The notes under the pieces are model-generated. The model was not told the origin of the DNA. It made no database searches and saw only the letters and a list, made by a program, of their open reading frames with translations. DNA of 64,000 nucleotides, taken from contig CM120645.1 of assembly GCA_051362555.1 (NCBI GenBank), positions 10,292,001-10,356,000 on the forward strand, written 5' to 3'. The translations under genes and the position numbers were made by a program. Below are positions 6,905 to 64,000 of this stretch, piece by piece. The stretch's first letter is position 1, and each line of letters starts with the position of its first letter. This DNA comes from Lingula anatina (Eukaryota > Animalia > Brachiopoda).

Positions 6905-7875
6905 CTATTCGTTGTTCAGGCCTAGCTTACCAATGGTAACGTGTCTTATAACGTGGAGTTGGTGAACGACGGTGTGTGTTTGGGCGGTCAAGAACGCTGT
7001 GCTACTCCATCCGCTTTCTTCGTAATCAGGAGGCGAGTCCTCGGAGTCCTCATCATCGCCGCTCAGGCATCCGTAACAGCAGCAACAGCAGCAGCAAAGG
7101 GTGGCCAGACCACCGAAGACAATGAGGGTGAACGCAGCAGCGTCGTTGACAACACCTTGGCACGCCTGCAAAAGAGACATAAATATACAAAGTGTGCATG
7201 TGGGGATAAGGTTTTCAGAATTTAATGTTATAGCTTTACATTGCTAAAAGAGTAATTTTCTGTGAAATTGTAGGAATTTTCCAAGGTACATATGTACACC
7301 TATCCAATAATAATATTAAAATCTATAAACCTTTTGACTTTTAATATCTATAAACTTTAATATTTATTGTCACGGAAATTCGACAATCTTCATATAAGTT
7401 ATAAGATTGGCCTAAAATGGAAAATTGGACGTACAAAGTCGATTTTTAGATCGCAATTTGTGAACGGTTTGGTCACAGAATGCTTACTGCTGCATGTATA
7501 AATGTATCACAGCATACACATCAGCTATTCACAAAAAACTGAAAGCGACTTTTTAAAGAGTGACATCACCAATGAAAAACACTTCAGGTATCGTTCAAGG
7601 TTCATTTGGTTCAGGCAATCTGAACCGGAATCGCCAAATATGTTGAATTTTGATGCGTACTTCAGCTCATACGTGCAATGTTCTAGACATTTAAAATTTT
7701 CTCCCATTTATCTTTTTTAGGAGAAATATGGTGCTGGGCGACACTGTACCTTGTTCTCCAGGCGTTTCTCGGCATCCAGACACAATATTCCAAATGTCAG
7801 ACCGCAGACTGCCAGACCTACGACTGACAGCAACAAACAGCAGCTACAACACAAAGCACCTGTATTTTCACCCAT
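6905..7875 (-). CDS. Gene A1: 128-aa two-TM membrane protein with poly-Cys cluster and PPDY motif (exons 7875-7750, 7165-6905)
   Basis: Exon 1 MGENTGALCCSCCLLLSVVGLAVCGLTFGILCLDAEKRLENK|gtacag. Acceptor ttttgcag|ACQGVVNDAAAFTLIVFGGLATLCCCCCCCYGCLSGDDEDSEDSPPDYEESGW...NNE*. Phase-0 GT-AG intron; structure conserved in paralogues. Confidence 0.85.
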
Positions 7876-13382: not shown

Positions 13383-14374
13383 CTATTGTACATGTATGTC
13401 TATGCCTAGCTTACCAAGGGTAGCGTCTCTTAAATGACGCATTTGGCGTTGGAAGATTTGTGTTTGAGCGGTCAAGAAGGCTGTGCTACTCCATCCGCTT
13501 TCTTCGTAATCAGGAGGCGAGTCCACGGAGTCCTCATCATCTCTCCTCAGACATGCACAACAGCAGCAAAAGCAGCAGCAAACGGTGGCCAGACCACCGA
13601 AGACATTGAGAGTGATCGCAGCAGCGTAGTTGACAACACCTTGACACACCTGTAAAAGCGACATACCTGTAAATATACAAAGTGTGCTTGTGGGGATAAA
13701 GTTACTAGAGTTTAATGCGTGTTAAACATGTAGCTTCACATAGTTAAAATAGTATTTTTTTGAGAAATTTTAGCAATTTTCCAAGGTACATATGTATACC
13801 TATTTAATAACAATATTACAAAACATAAATCTTTTAAACTTTTAATATCTATAAACTTTATTATTTACTGTCACGAAAATTCGCCAATCTTCATTTAAGT
13901 TACAAGATTGGCCTAAAATGAAAAATTGGACCTATTAAGTCGATTTTTAGATCGTAATTTGTGAACGGTTTGGTCGCAGAATACTTGCTACTGCATATAT
14001 ACATGTATCATAACATATATATTAGCTGTTCACATTACTTGAAGACTGAAAGCGGCTATTTAAAGAGTGAAATCACCAATGAAAAGCACCTCAGGTATCG
14101 TTCAAGGATTGTTTAGTTCCGGCAATCTGAACCGAAATCGCCAAATATGTTGAATTTTGATGCGTACTGCAGCTCATTTGGGCAGTGTTCTCGACATTGA
14201 TCTAATTATTATTATTTTTTAGAAGAAATGTGATGCTGACCAAGACTGTACCTTTTTCTCAGGGCGTATATCGGCATCCAGACACAGTTTTCCGAATGTC
14301 AGACCGCAGACTGCTAGAGCTACGACTGCCAGCCAAATACAGCATCCACAAAATGCAACTGCCTTATCACCCAT
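13383..14374 (-). CDS. Gene A2: 129-aa two-TM poly-Cys PPDY protein (exons 14374-14252, 13649-13383)
   Basis: Exon 1 MGDKAVAFCGCCIWLAVVALAVCGLTFGKLCLDADIRPEKK|gtacag. Acceptor ttttacag|VCQGVVNYAAAITLNVFGGLATVCCCFCCCCACL...PPDYEESGW...HVQ*. Confidence 0.82.
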
Positions 14375-26356: not shown

Positions 26357-29300
26357 TCAGGGAACGTCCATGTCAGTCTCATTTAACCGCTTTAGAAGCA
26401 TACCCGTGGGTCTTCTACGGCCGTTATTCCCATTTAACCAGTTCAGTGTGATATTACGGTACAAAGCGTCTGTAAAATTGGTCAGTATTAAGCGACCAAC
26501 ATTCTCGACACGGAATCTGTGCATGCTACCATTCACTCCGGCCTGTTTGAGGATGTGCTTCGGTTTGTTAAAACCAATCCCATCTAGCCACTCTCTCGTT
26601 TTGTTTAGCAAGATTTCGCTTTCCTGCGGCCGTCGTGTGGTATTGTCCCCTACTTTGACTCGCACTTTCCCGGGTAACGTCGTCACTTCGAGGCTCACTT
26701 GGACTTCCGTTTGCGCACTGCTTTCCTCGCTGATTTGCCAGATGGCTATAAAGACAACGGCAGCTATGAGTGTAGAGCTGATCACGCCTGCTATAAGAAA
26801 AATCAAAGCTTTGGTGCTGCCTTCGTTAGCCTGCTGGTAGTAGGTCCTGTTGAAGTTACGGATGCTGAGGAGTGAAAACGCCACCGTCGGGACGCCAAGC
26901 AGAGGATTGAACAGCGTCAATACGAGGGCAGGAATGAGGTAATTTGGTGGAGGCCTGCAATAGAAGAAATCATAATTTATTTGCGTTATTGGGCAATGTG
27001 TTGGGGCTTTTTAATGAGCAAGTTAATGTTTGGGCCAAGTTTAACTCAAGGAACAATGTGTATCTTTATTTCGAAGCCGCGTATTTTTTTCTGTATTTTA
27101 TTCGCAGGAGGGTTTAACATGTCCATGGCATGTCCGTAACATAGATTTTGCAACGGGTGTCATTCAGTAATTTTTACGAAATGCAACCCTGTGAGTTATC
27201 ATATAAAGTAATGTAAATGAAGATTTTCAACTGATGTTGTATACATGTATCTCCGTACTCGACACACTGAATCAATGAATACAGGGGGGTACTCGAATCA
27301 CTAAAGTTAATTCCCAAACAACTACAACTACAAGGAATATCAAAGCCTTGAATTGGTAAACAGACTTTGCACCAGACAACCAGAGTACGTGATTGGAGCA
27401 CGTTTCAGAACTCGACTCTTGTGTTTAGTTTGTGACGTTCCTATCTGGTGAAAGACAAGGCGCAGACACAACATGGCCCCGTTACAAAGTATAGGAGGTG
27501 ATATCATAATTTCTCCCATTCGATTCACGTGTTGCTGTGTCTGAGATTATATACATGTATGTCTCCCTTGTTGTTTGTGTGTCACCGAAATCTACGTGAA
27601 AACACACTTACTGTAGTATACACATAGACATTGTTTTGCTTTCCCAGATAAGTTAACTACCCTACTTTAAGGTTATGCAGTTTCGCTTCAACTGATACAC
27701 GATAAAAGAGTGTTGAAATATGAGGGCTTTTTTTAAATGCCAGATTACACGTGCTTGCTGAATGATTATTTTAATTTTGATAACATAACTTATCAGTAGA
27801 CTGGAGACAGCAAGCAATTTAAAGGTTACGGTAAAAAGTTTCAAAACAAATCCCGATATCAACATGAAGCCGAGCTTTTTGTATCTGTTTGTTGCTTTGA
27901 GACCTAAACACACACTCACTCACGTACGCACGCAGATGTTACAGAGACGTCAGGGTAGCTTCCTACAAAAAAGGAGAAACTGCCTATATCTATTTGAAAC
28001 ATGGTTGTGCGCAAAATCCTTGTTAAAATAATTCTAAAAATTGCGGCAGGGTGTGGAAAAAAAATGTTATTCAATCCCTTTGTTCACGACATACGAAATA
28101 TGACATGAATTATGTTGTGGTTCGCCTGCATAATCTAATAAGACTGGCAGCCGAAGAAGTGAGGGAGATTGAGGGGATAAATAATCAAACGACACAAGTG
28201 ATTTCGTAGCCGCATAAGCGTTGTTAAGTACGCCACACTAAGTACAGTGTACATGGTGGAGGAACGCCATCGCCAAATATCATAATTTAAGGGTCTTACA
28301 CAACGTCTTTGGGCGTATTTACGTCTAATAAAAAAGTAAAAATATAATAATAGAGACATTCGTTTACACTGAGATAATCCGGTGACTGAGAAAGCCTTGA
28401 AACCGAAAATGACGCTTTGTCTAAAAAACACTGCTAGTTCGCGTACGTCATTCGGGAGTTCGTGTAACAGGTAAAAGAGCAATCACGAGCACTGTGCAAA
28501 TTTACGTAAATGTGGCTTTATGATTACCTGTAACTTCTAAAATCATTTGTAATCCTCCAGTATTTGTAGTCAATACTACAAGTACAATGTACTGGCAATT
28601 GCCAAAACACTCAATGGAAGGGATGACAAACGATTAAACATCTAAATTATTAGTCGCCAGAAAAACAGAGTCACTCCTGGAGATGGATTTTGAACTGACA
28701 AAACGGAATTAAAAACAAGTTCTATAAAACTTATGCTGAAAGTGTGTTGAAGTAATCAAAAAGATGGGATTTTCTAAAGGCAACAACGAAAAAATGATAC
28801 AAGTGCAAATTTCGTTGTAATAAATGTATGTACTTCGTACTTAATGATAAGAGTCGTAGGTACAAGCGCCTGTAAGATTTTAAAAATTTTAGTTGTAATT
28901 GACAGAGGCCAAAATCAAAGGGCAGACAAACAGACAGACGGACGGACGGGAAGAGAAAGAAAATACACAGAAAGAGAAAGGATAAGAAATTAATGGAACG
29001 TAATGTGGACCACAATGCAATTACTAGACAGCTAAAAAATTCCGTTGATATTTGACATAAGCTGGATGGGTCGAGTTTGGAAGTATGGTAATTACGCGTA
29101 CTGTTGATCCTTGTCATAAAAGCTGACAAGGGCAACTAAACAGACACTTGGATGAATACCAAACATTAGAAAGGTCGACCCGGTGTCATTCTACCCTACA
29201 TCTGTGTGTTTTATCAGCTTTGTGCTTGTGAGAGTGATTTACCTCACACTGGAACACACGCACACACACACACACACACACGTGTACATGCACACACGCA

Positions 29301-52515: not shown

Positions 52516-53880
52516 ATGGCATTAACACATAAAAGGTTTACAATCTTTATACACGGACTAAAAACACTGCCAAATATTGTCGATTGCCTCTGTATTTACG
52601 ACGCAAATATGGACTCGATCAACCACAATGCGGACAAAAGAAATTTATACATCGATCGATTTTATGAGAGAAACGACAACGTAAGCTGGGGATCCAACAC
52701 ACACAGTCTCAATAACAAATCGAAGAGGCAGCTGACAGTAGGCCGTGTGTTTGACGACACATATCAGTCACTATCCCCCCGGAGACATGGACGGGAGAGT
52801 TACCAAGACTACTCCCAAAGGTACAAACACGTGAATTATAACCTGCCGACGAAAGTCAGAAATCTTTACGAACTCCGCCAACTCCGTGGACGCCCGATAA
52901 GATGCCCATACGGCAAGGATTCCCTCACCACTGATTTTGCCGTAACGCCGGACACACAGTTCACTGGTGGTAGTGACGGCGGTGGTGGTGGGCGTGACAC
53001 GTACGAGACGCCTTGGCGCCTTAAGGCCCATAAGGCAGGTGAGAGTAGTAAAGCCTTGATGGCCCGGGGTGCCCACACACACAGCTATGCTGAGACAGAG
53101 AAAACGCCAGCCGAGTCTTCTTCGTCCAGTCGACCGAGAAACGTGGATAAATCTCAACTGAACCAACTCTCGTACAGCACGGCTGGCGTAGGTCAACACG
53201 GCGGCCCACCCATGTGGCTATATCGCAGCCGAACGGACGTGGATTTGACCGAATGGACGCAGCCGCCTACCCTCCCTCCTCTTCCCAGCTCCGACTTCAG
53301 TTTCCACGGTGACCACACTAATGTAAACGGTGGACATGGTTTTTATTCTCACGTGGGAAGAAGCGCTCAATCCACGGCTAACTCATGGCCGAAAATGAAC
53401 ATGACGCGACGGCAAAGCTCAATCCTCGGTGAAAACACCTATAGCCATTCCACCCCCATCTCCCAGAGGATATACCTAGAACAGCCTTTTTTCGATACGC
53501 ATCGGAAATCCATAGTAACTGAGATTTCCGATTCTTCCGCTAGAGGGAGCGGTGGCTCGGATCCCTTACGCCTCCCGCCAGTCGGCAGGTCGATAATCAT
53601 GGAAAACGAACTGGATCAGTATCTGAAGTTTTTACACAAACAGAAAGGGAGAGACTGTACCTTCAGTAGCCTCCAGCACAGGAGCTTCGAGGGGCCTAAC
53701 AGAGGGGGGCCCATTAACAGGCCCCACAGCCCAAACCTGAGAAACGACCTGGCGAGGAAAAGACACATTATGGACAGCAAGTTGCCGAAGTTACCCACCT
53801 CTGTTTCGGCTTTCGACTTCCAGCGGGGAAAGACGTATGAAATGCAAAAGCAAATGAGGCTGCGTTTAAATAAAAAGTAA
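52516..53880 (+). CDS. Single-exon uncharacterised protein (454 aa, or 423 aa from ATG 52609); Ser/Arg/Gly/Pro-rich, probably largely disordered
   Basis: 1365-nt open frame with clearly higher GC than its AT-rich flanks, and AATAAA at ~53910. No domain recognised. Confidence 0.75.
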   Translation: MALTHKRFTIFIHGLKTLPNIVDCLCIYDANMDSINHNADKRNLYIDRFYERNDNVSWGSNTHSLNNKSKRQLTVGRVFDDTYQSLSPRRHGRESYQDYSQRYKHVNYNLPTKVRNLYELRQLRGRPIRCPYGKDSLTTDFAVTPDTQFTGGSDGGGGGRDTYETPWRLKAHKAGESSKALMARGAHTHSYAETEKTPAESSSSSRPRNVDKSQLNQLSYSTAGVGQHGGPPMWLYRSRTDVDLTEWTQPPTLPPLPSSDFSFHGDHTNVNGGHGFYSHVGRSAQSTANSWPKMNMTRRQSSILGENTYSHSTPISQRIYLEQPFFDTHRKSIVTEISDSSARGSGGSDPLRLPPVGRSIIMENELDQYLKFLHKQKGRDCTFSSLQHRSFEGPNRGGPINRPHSPNLRNDLARKRHIMDSKLPKLPTSVSAFDFQRGKTYEMQKQMRLRLNKK

Positions 53881-58245: not shown

Positions 58246-61200
58246 ATGTTGCTGAAAAGATGTTCGTTCATTCTTCTAGCACTGTCGCTATACACAGCAG
58301 GTAAAGATACTTATGCTTTTAGCTGTATGGAGTTGGGGTTGGGGTTATTTTCAAAAGTGAACTCAAGATAATTATCTGAAGTTTCAAAAACACGGCTGAT
58401 AGGTTCAATGATTTAGAAAGGTAGAAATGTGAGAAAAACGCCATTTTGGAAAGCGTAGCATTAAAATCATTATCATGCCACCTCTTCGTTTTTTTCTAAA
58501 TTTATGAATATTACATAAATATGTTTTGACACAAAACTTCGCATAACAAACTGAACATTTGCTGCTTTTTATTCTTGCGGGTCACCAAACGTATCCTTTC
58601 TTTACCCTCTGATACACTGTGTCACATGGGCCTCTAGGATAGCCTGTTATAAAATTCAAGAATTTAACAATCTTGTAGCAGACTAGTGGCAAACCCTGTG
58701 GTCACAGAGTGCCCATTTTGGCAGACATAACTATTTTGCCATGGCACACGACTTTACACTGTAAAAGGAATTAAAAAATCAACGGTTTTCAAATTATTAT
58801 ATTGGAACAATCTAAGAAAGGAGCGGTCATTTGGCATCTACTGGAAACTTTTATACGTCAAAAGAACGAAAAATGATCAACGACATAGATCTCGGCCTCC
58901 GTATATCTCTAGGCACACGCTAACATCAGACTACGCAGGTACACATTACTTAACGCGCGTGAAAGTGTCTCGAAAGAAGAACAATGCCGGGCGAGGGCCA
59001 CGGGATGGAGTAAAGATTTAATTTGACAAAAACATTAAATTGTAAGCACCCCTTTGATTTATTTCTCAGCCTTGATTGCAGTAATGCTAGGAGCTAGTTG
59101 GAGGTCATAAATAAAATGACAATAGAGTATGTACATACACGACCAAGCACACTCATTCTACGTCGAGAAGCCAACAATGTACTTGTGAGCTGGCTTCACA
59201 GCCCCCCCCCCCCCCCCACACACACACACACACCCCGGGTTGCAGAGATGATCGGAAATTAACTCCCACTAACAGCTTACTTCTCTGACGTTTCCAGTAA
59301 CGTTCATTGCTTGTGTCTTGTTACTCCCCACCCGGATTATATCTAAATTCTCTTAATGACTCTTTATACTTGATTACATCATAAATCTCTGCTCAGTAAG
59401 CACACCTGATATTTCTGGGACCTGCGTTTAATCAAAAGATGTCCAGTTATCTATGTAAGCCCATGGGTGGAGAACTGGTATTTGCGATAGACTGGATTCA
59501 AATTTTGGGACTTGCAGAATAGAGTTAGATAGGAAGAGGGAAAGAAATGTCTGAGAAAACTAAAGACTCTTGCTGTTTTATTCCCTCTTTCATGTGCCTC
59601 AGTGACAAGTTTTTTTAATTCTGAACCCGGGTAGAGTCTAACGCCAACCCCTCATTGCAGAGCAATGCTGGTAGTCAGCAGCAATTTTCCCTACTGTAGA
59701 ACTGTATTGTAGAACTCTAAGAGAGCATTCACATCGAGAAGAGCCGAGGACTAGCCAGGCTGAGACCTAAATATGGCGGACCTACATGAAAGGTAGACCG
59801 CATAATCCTTTAATGGTCTCTCCACCTTTCTCACGGCTCCCCACGCGTCGTCCCTCGACCGGTTGAATTGAACCGAGATTTAATTAGTGTGCCCCGGCAG
59901 GGACGACGCGCGGGGAGGCGTGTGAGAGGAGGAGAAACAATTAAAGTATTACGCGGTTTTCCTTTCTTGTAGGTCCGCCATAGGTCTCGGCCTTGCTAGA
60001 CCTCGGCTCTTCTCTATGTGAATGCTCTCTAAAACTAGGGCCGGATTGATTTCCTCGGACTATGCCATGGCCTTATCATCATTTTGATCTAATGTGACCA
60101 TATTAAATATTCACTGTACAAAAACAGGAGTAGAAAGGTAAGAGTTGTATATTTGGTCGTTTGTCTTGTCATTTGCATCCAAATTTGGATACCGTGGACG
60201 GCGGATGACATTGTTATTATATTATCATACTCGAAGATTAAATACATGCAAAACTTAATTTGATTTGTTTGCTTGTTCGGAGTATTTAATGGTGGTGGAC
60301 TTTTTTCATGCTACGTACGGCTTGTGCTGGAAAAGTAAATGTTATAGTGTCAATATTTCCAATTATATGATTCATGTGTCGAAATATTAATCTATAAATT
60401 TATTTGTTTTTTTTTTCGGCAGACGTTTTAGGAAGAACGAGTAATCACGCTCGTATTTTGTGCACACGCAAGCGTCGAGACCTACAGGGCCTTAGCTTTC
60501 ATGAACGTCTGAAGCGCTGCTCAGGAGGCGGCGGCGGCGGCATTGAAACCATCACAGTGGTCGGTCAGCGAATCAGCGATCCGTTTGTGACTGTCATTAG
60601 GGGGGACGCCATCAGAGGATTTCTGGACAGTTTTGCTGGACAGGGGGTGATCACCCACGAAGGTGGATTTGGGGGTGGACCTAGCAACCAGCAGCAACAG
60701 GATAAAGACTGTCATGGGGACGTGGGTAAAGTCGACACCAAAGGAGCGTCTTCCAAAACAGCGGGTCAGGACGCCAATGCAAAAGGACTGACTGGCGTGG
60801 CGGCCTCGAACAAACTGGCGCAGAACGACCTCAACAGACTGAAGCAGTAAGTAAAAGTTTTTTAAAACAAACTGTGCAATTTAATCTTTTTATACATTAT
60901 TAAAAGTCAGACATAACCAACCTTCCAAATGTACTGGTAGTTACAGCATAAATTCAAACAAGATACATGTACAGTCAGTACTGCCCAAGGTAAATAGAAT
61001 ATTAATTTTTACATATTAACATTTCTGTCTCGGAATTTCCTGATCAAGCGAGATTTGGAGGAGAATTGGGTCAGAAATGATAAAAAAAGCTAGCGAGTGC
61101 AGCGCAAAGGAAAGAAAAAAAAAAACAAAAACAAACAAACAAACAAAAAAACAGCGTATATTCTTGTACGTTATGTAGTCTCGTATGACGTCACACAGTG

Positions 61201-61982
61201 CCGTCAGCCTCGTTGTAGGCTATCTAGTATGATAAAAAAGGAAGGATGAAATTTCTAAAAACAGGTATTTGAATAACAGAATTTTTCTTTTTCTTGGTGT
61301 TAAATTTAGAAACAATTTTCTTTTTAGATTTAAAGATCAGATCAACCAAGTGTCTAAAGAGACGGGAATGGATGCTGCCATCATTGCTGCCATCATCTCG
61401 CGAGAATCTCGTGGCGGTGCTGCTCTGGACTCCAATCACCATGGTGATAACGGGAACGGCTTTGGGTTGATGCAAATTGATAAAAGATTCCACACTACTC
61501 AGGGTGCTTGGAACAGTGCGGAACATATCAAACAAGGAGTGGGGATTTTAAAAGGAATGATCAGTGGCGTCCGAGATTGCCACCCCTCATGGAGTGACGA
61601 ACAAGTTCTGAAGGGGGGCATATCCGCCTACAACGCGGGTGTGCGTAATGTCCGAAATTACGACCGAATGGATGTGGGAACAACGGGAGATGACTACGCT
61701 AATGACGTCATCGCACGTGCTCAATACTTGAAGCAGAAAGGGTTCGATGACCCCAAGGATCAGAAGTGCCAAGGCGGCTCCAGGAGAAGGCGGGGCACCT
61801 GTCCTTACAGCTGGTTCAATCCCAATGAAACCAGACCGGTAACTTCAGGTTCGTCAGGGGGCGCTAGTAGCCGAGGCGGGTCCGGCTCAACAGGTGGCAG
61901 CAGCAGTCGAGGAAGCTCAAGTCGACACGAGCCAATCTTTACGCCAAGATGTGTGAGAGGGAGATGTACGCAGATCCCATAA
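58246..61982 (+). CDS. LYG: Secreted goose-type (g-type, GH23) lysozyme with long N- and C-terminal extensions, 377 aa (exons 58246-58300, 60423-60846, 61328-61982)
   Basis: Signal peptide MLLKRCSFILLALSLYTA(D)VLG across a phase-1 intron; phase-2 intron CA|gtaagt...ttttag|A. g-type motifs CHGDVGKVDTKGAS, GVAASNKLA, AIIAAIISRESRGG (catalytic Glu), GDNGNGFGLMQIDKR (two Asp), LKGGISAYNAG, MDVGTTGDDYANDVIARAQY. Confidence 0.93.
59721..60029. mobile_element. Foldback PIF/Harbinger-type MITE in lysozyme intron 1
   Basis: ~140-bp imperfect inverted arms (GAGAGCATTCACAT.GAGAAGAGCCGAGG / CCTCGGCTCTTCTCTATGTGAATGCTCTC) with TAA target duplication. Confidence 0.88.
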
Positions 61983-63447: not shown

Positions 63448-64000
63448 TTAAAGACCAAAATCTCGTGGAATACCGTAAAAAAAAGCAAGAAGGGTAGAAA
63501 AGAACACATATGTCAAAATTGCTGGCAAGAAGAAGAGGGTATTGCCAAAAGAGATGGTCTGGCAGCACCCACAGTTTGGTAAATCACCAGGCTTACATCC
63601 CAGGGGATCGACATTTGTTCCATTAATGGCTTGATTGGTCACTACTAAGGCAGTCTGGTCAATAGTATCAGGGCAATCATAGACGTCAACTTGCATCGTA
63701 GCCCTCTCGTGGTCAGTCATGACGACAGACACTTTGTAACCACATTCTTTGCGTATGTCATACTGAATGGTGTCGTCTGCTACTAAAGGGTAATAATCAG
63801 CTAAGGTCTTCATACCGTTGTGTAGGTTTACCTTGACGTCCGAGTATTTGGCTTCAAATGAAAATATTCTGGCGTTGTAGGCGTTTGGGGGTACCACGTG
63901 GAACAATATGATTACATAGAGGTCCGTCCCCTCGATATTGTATACAAATGATCCTTCAGGCTCCCCACTACTTCCGACTTGATCAAACTCGAGGACAGTG
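63448..64000 (-). CDS. 3' part of an actinoporin-like (cytolysin-fold) protein with a hydrophobic C-terminal tail; 5' end outside the window
   Basis: Frame is open to the window edge: TVLEFDQVGSSGEPEGSFVYNIEGTDLYVIILFHVVPP...PLVADD...GYKVSVVMTDHERATMQVDV. By eye this aligns with the actinoporin pattern G..G.L.Y....LAVLFSVP...PF.GDN...G.K....M.....A.LEI.V. It is followed by a Cys-containing linker and LFFLPAILTYVFFSTLLAFFYG. Confidence 0.68.
   Translation of the reverse strand, partial: TVLEFDQVGSSGEPEGSFVYNIEGTDLYVIILFHVVPPNAYNARIFSFEAKYSDVKVNLHNGMKTLADYYPLVADDTIQYDIRKECGYKVSVVMTDHERATMQVDVYDCPDTIDQTALVVTNQAINGTNVDPLGCKPGDLPNCGCCQTISFGNTLFFLPAILTYVFFSTLLAFFYGIPRDFGL

Follow-up and report, generated by a model that had tools for sequence, protein, structure and literature searches.

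A g-type lysozyme of the brachiopod Lingula anatina bearing a TonB-box-like motif behind a predicted convertase loop, a candidate for pesticin-like import

Pesticin combines an N-terminal TonB box (residues 3-7), a Gly-rich flexible front and a C-terminal muramidase; its import region carries a foreign enzyme, T4 lysozyme, into cells, and engineered disulfides block the uptake of both pesticin and pesticin-T4L until they are reduced (PMC3390615). In the colicin M family, the box lies in the first mature residues (residues 2-6 in colicin M; PMC8469651) and the target is the periplasmic wall. These proteins are bacterial lipid II phosphatases with a folded receptor domain of ~100 residues, and some members, including the signal-peptide-bearing burkhocins, are Sec-secreted (PMC8469651, PMC5821083). 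Engineered lysocins join a bacteriocin import region to a muramidase and kill Gram-negatives via a TonB-dependent transporter (PMC12691632). Among animal wall hydrolases, PLys and rusticalin bear a portable N-terminal domain, a cysteine-rich repeat with six disulfides that is removed from PLys by cleavage, and their enzymes are likely of microbial origin (PMC12855814, PMC6339383). A plain placozoan g-type lysozyme gave no lysis of E. coli in one study (PMC12855814).

The Lingula anatina protein described here is, by sequence, a g-type (GH23) lysozyme. It shares the catalytic domain of this family and adds to it a front module and a Cys-bracketed tail. The candidate box, the Gly-rich front and the C-terminal muramidase recall pesticin, and in another bearer of the module, the metagenome contig L001, the likeness extends even to the enzyme family (PF16754). 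Unlike pesticin, the Lingula protein is encoded by an animal gene with introns and has a predicted signal peptide, a predicted convertase loop, a GH23 enzyme and conserved Cys; no sequence likeness of its module to the T or R domain of pesticin was found, and no immunity gene would be needed. The distance from box to enzyme is 46 residues, whereas it is ~160 in pesticin (about 40 for T and 126 for R; PMC3390615). The predicted box position and wall target, as well as the secretion signal, have counterparts in the colicin M family, and an animal wall hydrolase with a portable front has one in PLys and rusticalin, whose domain differs in kind. Engineered lysocins are man-made, and the Lingula enzyme would be their natural animal counterpart. 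The protein is not a group-B bacteriocin, being of animal origin and having no colicin-sized receptor domain, but it may act alike.

The stretch of DNA analysed, called the window below, comprises 64,000 nucleotides of Lingula anatina. The gene lies on the + strand and consists of three exons, with the motif within exon 2, downstream of the acceptor at 60423 (Table 1). The exon 2 protein is 100% identical to XP_013418288, the Lingula anatina lysozyme g of 377 aa, and exon 3 shows four residue differences from it; the signal peptide was called by eye, not by a predictor. A sequence-only reading of this DNA had allowed that exon 2 might start at a downstream acceptor and skip the motif. This fails because RNA reads join exon 1 to 60423 (58300 to 60423, GT..AG; 3 and 5 reads in two runs, plus a contig) and none skips the motif: in two further runs, 50 and 108 reads leave exon 2 at 60423 into exon-1 sequence, with no joint inside 60400-60730; a third run yielded no reads here. 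Reads of other individuals covering the same interval show 15 variable codons, of which 14 change no amino acid (0.25 expected per change; P about 4e-8), both variants that fall in the motif included; in such reads the Gly linker is longer by +1 and +2 residues. This bias indicates that the exon is under selection as protein-coding sequence and does not single out the motif. The locus is a spliced, expressed animal g-type lysozyme gene.

Intron 1 harbours an interspersed repeat at 59650-59950, covered by RNA reads from both strands that are 90-95% alike and have many different loose ends. Elsewhere in the window, an exon with a CD225 (interferon-induced transmembrane/dispanin) domain lies at 26357-27010 on the - strand (E 1e-6). 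Two similar frames at 6905-7243 and 13383-13721 (-), each with a hydrophobic stretch, a Cys run and an acidic motif, are likely tandem paralogous exons. Open frames at 52516-53880 (+, 454 codons) and 63448-63999 (-, at least 183 codons) gave no significant Pfam match.

Table 1 Features of the Lingula lysozyme g locus, in positions of the window.
Feature	Position	Strand	Remarks
Exon 1, coding part	58246..58300	+	residues 1-18, most of predicted signal peptide; matches the start of P0003
Intron 1	58301..60422	+	GT..AG, phase 1
Exon 2	60423..60846	+	end of signal peptide, entire module, first 46 residues of lysozyme domain
Pro-loop: C32, RKRR, spacer, RLKR, C51	60461..60520	+	predicted disulfide-bridged convertase loop
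RKRR, residues 34-37	60467-60478	+	
RLKR, residues 47-50	60506-60517	+	
Ser52 + Gly6 linker	60521..60541	+	length-variable in Lingula; in L001 only LGA
TonB-box-like motif IETITVVGQR, residues 59-68	60542..60571	+	
Post-box segment, residues 69-91	60572..60640	+	conserved; predicted strand + amphipathic helix; candidate receptor-binding or box-masking element
Gly/Gln-rich linker	60641..60709	+	Asp last before first Cys of the enzyme
g-type (GH23) lysozyme domain, residues 115-299	60710..61745	+	interrupted by intron 2
Intron 2	60847-61327	+	GT..AG; splits lysozyme domain; RNA joint 60846 -> 61328
Catalytic Glu186	61404-61406	+	SRES motif; aligned to goose, ostrich and salmon enzymes
C-terminal tail	61746..61982	+	C307-RRRR(312-315)-C318, Gly/Ser linker, C368/C373 end, stop

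The layout of RKRR, RLKR, Cys, Gly linker and IETITVVGQR, on which the sequence-only reading was built, is exact as claimed (residues 34-68). The module spans ~85 residues, in the order Cys, basic cut sites, Cys, Gly linker, box and a short conserved segment, with about 12 residues between the first basic run and R-x-K-R. Both front cut sites sit between the conserved C32 and C51. The second, R-x-K-R, directly precedes the second Cys in all five proteins examined, and the first is a strict R-x-K/R-R site only in Lingula and in the 137-residue protein P0007, a basic run taking its place in amphioxus. The box follows the conserved R-x-K-R by 9 residues in Lingula and by 5-6 in L001. A TonB-box sequence is present near the mature N-terminus if the chain is cut after R50, as predicted. 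About half of the 46 residues between box and enzyme are low-complexity linker; no folded receptor-binding domain is recognisable in them, the PDB giving no match by profile or by fold. They contain no basic cut site, so that the box would stay attached to the enzyme after convertase processing.

The lysozyme domain matches solved g-type lysozymes with E 1.7e-59 (residues 116-299) and the Pfam SLT family with 21.6 bits against a cut-off of 21.3. The six solved g-type chains matched are 181-187 residues long and cover only residues 114-299. Glu186 corresponds to the catalytic residue of the g-type family. The enzyme domain has exactly two Cys, 115 and 244, and the Cys pairs 32/51, 115/244, 307/318 and 368/373 are conserved, the pairings being read from their pattern. 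The tail (61746-61982) mirrors the design of the front, with two Cys around RRRR, a Gly/Ser linker and a basic two-Cys end. Its four Cys and its Arg run are all kept in amphioxus, and in isoform X2 of B. lanceolatum (P0016) a short two-Cys end replaces the part after the Arg run. The tail may be a tethered peptide with an antimicrobial or binding role.

To compare the motif with real TonB boxes, we took 56 transporters from five bacterial genomes and derived a nine-column profile from the 40 residues that precede each Plug domain. The input was 60 loci, from which four were dropped (three picked by motif search, one duplicate); the five genomes had themselves been reached through that motif search. 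Real boxes held out of the profile have a median score of 20.5 bits (quartiles 14.9-23.5). The Lingula motif, at 22.0 bits, ranks first among all 76,601 nine-mers that the window yields in six frames, the next scoring 9.9. The score was reached by 0 of 3000 shuffles of the Lingula protein and by none of 2,000,000 random nine-mers. The boxes of the relatives described below score 14.4-21.9 bits, the substitutions among the animal copies remain in box space (14.4-22.0 bits), and of the 272 remaining open frames in the retrieved loci, none reaches 14.4 bits.

The exact string ETITV[VIM]G[QE][RS] occurs at 71 places in GTDB genomes, and 70 of these could be scanned with Pfam, one being too short. 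It stands 12-26 residues before a Pfam Plug domain in 17 cases and between a CarboxypepD_reg domain and an outer-membrane barrel in 12, barrels that are presumably TonB-dependent. The string is at the box position at 29 of the 71 places, many of these 29 being kin; 14 other matches fall in other known families (8 of them LysR regulators) and 28 are family-less or unscanned. Since the string is also found in unrelated bacterial proteins, the string alone does not make a box. In its sequence, the motif conforms to bacterial TonB boxes.

Searching exhaustively with residues 36-114 returned four matches at E <= 0.001. These include lysozyme g of Branchiostoma belcheri (E 2e-10) and P0007 (E 5e-4); P0005 and P0006 (E 2e-4) were rejected as repeat proteins of Bacteroidota type. 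A profile search added lysozyme g of B. floridae and B. lanceolatum. Word-based searches that started from the Lingula sequence alone recovered nothing else, not even the amphioxus proteins, and so under-sample the family. The motif is conserved in orthologues, the lysozyme g proteins of three amphioxus species (P0004, P0013 and P0014), which have the entire layout, tail included, and are 62-64% identical to the Lingula protein. Identity between Lingula and amphioxus is 136-139 of 185 residues (74-75%) in the enzyme, 7-9 of 10 in the box (70-90%, not above that of the enzyme) and 12-14 of 22 in the post-box segment. The alignment A2 has 26 invariant columns in four rows, and C7, R11, R12, L14, R22, K24, R25 and C26 (A2 columns) are invariant in all four. 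The module is known from three independent lineages (brachiopod, amphioxus and L001) and fronts a muramidase in 5/5 loci seen.

This degree of identity, with the same layout, is found although Lingula is a protostome and amphioxus a deuterostome. In a published tree, the single brachiopod g-type gene is nested within chordates (PMC11576321). The brachiopod-amphioxus likeness may stem from vertical descent accompanied by many losses or from a transfer from one animal to another.

The 1.5-kb metagenome contig L001 encodes a near-identical twin of P0007. Its gene (732-1491, +), cut by the contig end, has a signal-like start, then the module, 41-43% identical to that of Lingula, which continues straight into a muramidase with a GT..AG intron at 1128-1329, read from the sequence. 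The second exon alone matches Pfam Pesticin PF16754 with E 1.7e-10 (41.5 bits against a cut-off of 25.8), and pesticin is its sole PDB match. By its intron and signal-like start, the host of L001 is a likely eukaryote and probably an animal; a eukaryotic pesticin-type lysozyme is of interest in its own right. One module heads two unrelated muramidase families, GH23 and PF16754, with a common substrate. Fusion to another toxic domain had been raised as a possibility, and the pesticin-type muramidase behind the L001 module bears it out. This pair of partners, the chief new finding here, adds evidence for a portable module that muramidases can carry at their front.

In a model of the module alone, residues 71-78 form a strand and 81-91 a helix (pLDDT 50-63, low confidence), and the box strand pairs with residues 71-78 as a hairpin, also at low confidence. 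AlphaFold2 run on the full protein with 5 sequences gave a mean pLDDT of 37 and was set aside; it models no structure in the box region (pLDDT about 25). A fold search with the module model gave no match at E 0.001, a profile search of the PDB with the module nothing below E 0.8, and the ESM Atlas no usable match for residues 51-112 or P0007. Given the hairpin of the module-only model, the box may be a plain structural strand.

No relatives of the module were found among 163 candidates in GTDB genomes or among 108 candidates in viral contigs, in which a pattern scan also gave none. None of the 21 post-box pattern matches in viral contigs has an upstream box (best 0.6 bits), and the best match in named phages or plasmids has E 2. 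In 301 genomes of the phylum of G002, two matches with E 0.004-0.01 are at chance level and on inspection are not relatives. A bacterial bacteriocin with the module was not found in GTDB, in plasmids or in those 301 genomes. A g-type lysozyme was found neither in 401 genomes of that phylum nor in viral contigs. The same 401 genomes hold six PF16754 proteins, and an N-terminal box-like motif is present only in L146 (G402:C1:1154929-1155378 and upstream). This is a 330-residue pesticin-like bacteriocin candidate with an N-terminal box, its own middle domain and PF16754; about 135 residues separate box and enzyme, and the box scores only 7.9 bits under our profile.

Proteins on nine viral contigs resemble the L001 enzyme, with 53-65% identity over 45-54 residues, and none of the six frames scored among these relatives has a box (best 4.8 bits). 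The phage-like protein P0015 (398 residues) has in its residues 1-50 a Gly linker, a 20.4-bit box and a post-box-like segment, with eleven residues identical to the L001 post-box segment. Its E value is 4.4 against the whole module profile and 0.4 for the post-box part alone. The C-terminal third is 84% identical to a frame of the viral contig L002 (3-395) that lies before tail-like genes. We regard the link between P0015 and the animal module as a lead.

TonB-powered import in the manner of pesticin is our best reading of these data, held at a little under an even chance. Speaking for it, the motif scores like real boxes under a profile to which it did not contribute, the bacterial copies of its string lie at the box position in 29 of 71 cases, substitutions among the animal copies respect box space, GH23 and PF16754, different enzymes with the same periplasmic substrate, both bear the module, and the box lies behind R-x-K-R at a position like that in colicin M and pesticin. 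The carriage of a foreign lysozyme by the pesticin import region and the failure of a plain placozoan g-type lysozyme to lyse E. coli in one study also favour it. Speaking against it are the short distance from box to enzyme with no recognisable receptor-binding domain, the hairpin of the low-confidence model, the unrelated bacterial proteins that share the string, the lack of a bacteriocin with the module among the bacterial sequences searched, the restriction to three known independent lineages, and a conservation of the box between Lingula and amphioxus no higher than that of the enzyme. With both cut sites between two conserved Cys, cleavage may leave a branched and not a free N-terminus, as a 32-51 bond would hang a peptide on the new N-terminus, and the conserved Cys pairs would hinder threading during import. 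Pyocin S2, for its part, tolerates some disulfides (PMC10994204). The import interpretation of the sequence-only reading is partly supported: conservation, the exon and the second partner bear it out, and its mechanism, from cleavage to killing, is a prediction. It overlooked the conserved Cys around the cut sites, the further Cys pairs and the Cys-bracketed RRRR site in the tail.

The conserved Cys pairs suit an oxidised, folded extracellular protein, and with the hairpin and helix of the low-confidence model they would fit a small strand-strand-helix pro- or targeting domain of secreted muramidases, serving as a stabiliser, inhibitor, sorting or surface-binding element. The box likeness would then be incidental, boxes being acidic-led beta-strand peptides, and the module would be cut off or never meet TonB. 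The same nine-mer in LysR and other proteins agrees with this, and there is precedent in the removable stabilising N-terminal domain of a placozoan g-type lysozyme (PMC12855814) and in portable Cys-rich front domains on animal wall hydrolases (PMC6339383). We consider such a domain the main rival, less likely than import. Against it, three lineages retain a 22-bit match immediately after a convertase site, and the predicted cleavage pattern would leave the box on the enzyme. An improbable alternative sidesteps the disulfide and receptor problems by doing without import of the enzyme. The box would jam TonB and starve the cell of iron after a breach of the outer membrane or uptake of a small fragment, the lysozyme acting separately. 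TonB box peptides delivered to the periplasm do inhibit P. aeruginosa (PMC9841981), and peptide 23-37, which is strongly basic (net about +6) and would be tethered, could act on the membrane. Jamming nevertheless leaves the constant fusion ahead of a muramidase (5/5 loci) unexplained. Still more doubtful is a relic, in which the module arrived with a phage or bacterial muramidase gene, bound TonB there and was kept in animals for other reasons. The front of P0015 and the viral relatives of the L001 enzyme point that way, as do published trees suggesting bacterial transfer of g-type lysozymes (PMC11576321). With vertical inheritance, however, the lineages have been apart for more than 500 million years, in which a relic should have lost its box-like sequence. 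P0015 has no significant match to the whole profile, and no second phage example was found in the viral contigs and named phages searched.

Under TonB-powered import, the lysozyme precursor would be secreted and convertases would excise residues 38-50, so that the Gly linker and the box would then lead the mature chain. The short post-box segment may bind an outer-membrane transporter, and TonB would bind the box and pull the muramidase into the Gram-negative periplasm, the Cys pairs being reduced, or tolerated, during import. From the periplasm, the muramidase would cut peptidoglycan and kill the cell. More broadly, and as a tentative proposal whose chances we put somewhat below one half, marine invertebrates may own colicin-like antibiotics: a convertase-armed TonB import module of ~65 residues, perhaps derived from a phage virion protein, on at least two unrelated muramidases, tricking Gram-negatives into importing an animal lysozyme by way of their nutrient transporters.

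No description of a TonB box on an animal protein, or of such a module, was found in searches of the open full-text literature; the extension may have been noted in subscription journals, in which biochemical work on amphioxus lysozymes has appeared. The words 'TonB', 'furin' and 'N-terminal' are absent from the main text of PMC11576321, and 'TonB' and 'furin' from PMC12855814; the passages searched on PLys and rusticalin make no mention of a TonB box (PMC12855814, PMC6339383).

If true, a host-encoded hijack of TonB would give animals a novel means of innate immunity or of digesting bacteria, and the module would be a very short natural import tag of the kind now borrowed from pyocins for engineered lysocins. 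Should import fail, the module would still be a previously undescribed portable element of animal wall hydrolases, scattered over a brachiopod, amphioxus and a third lineage.
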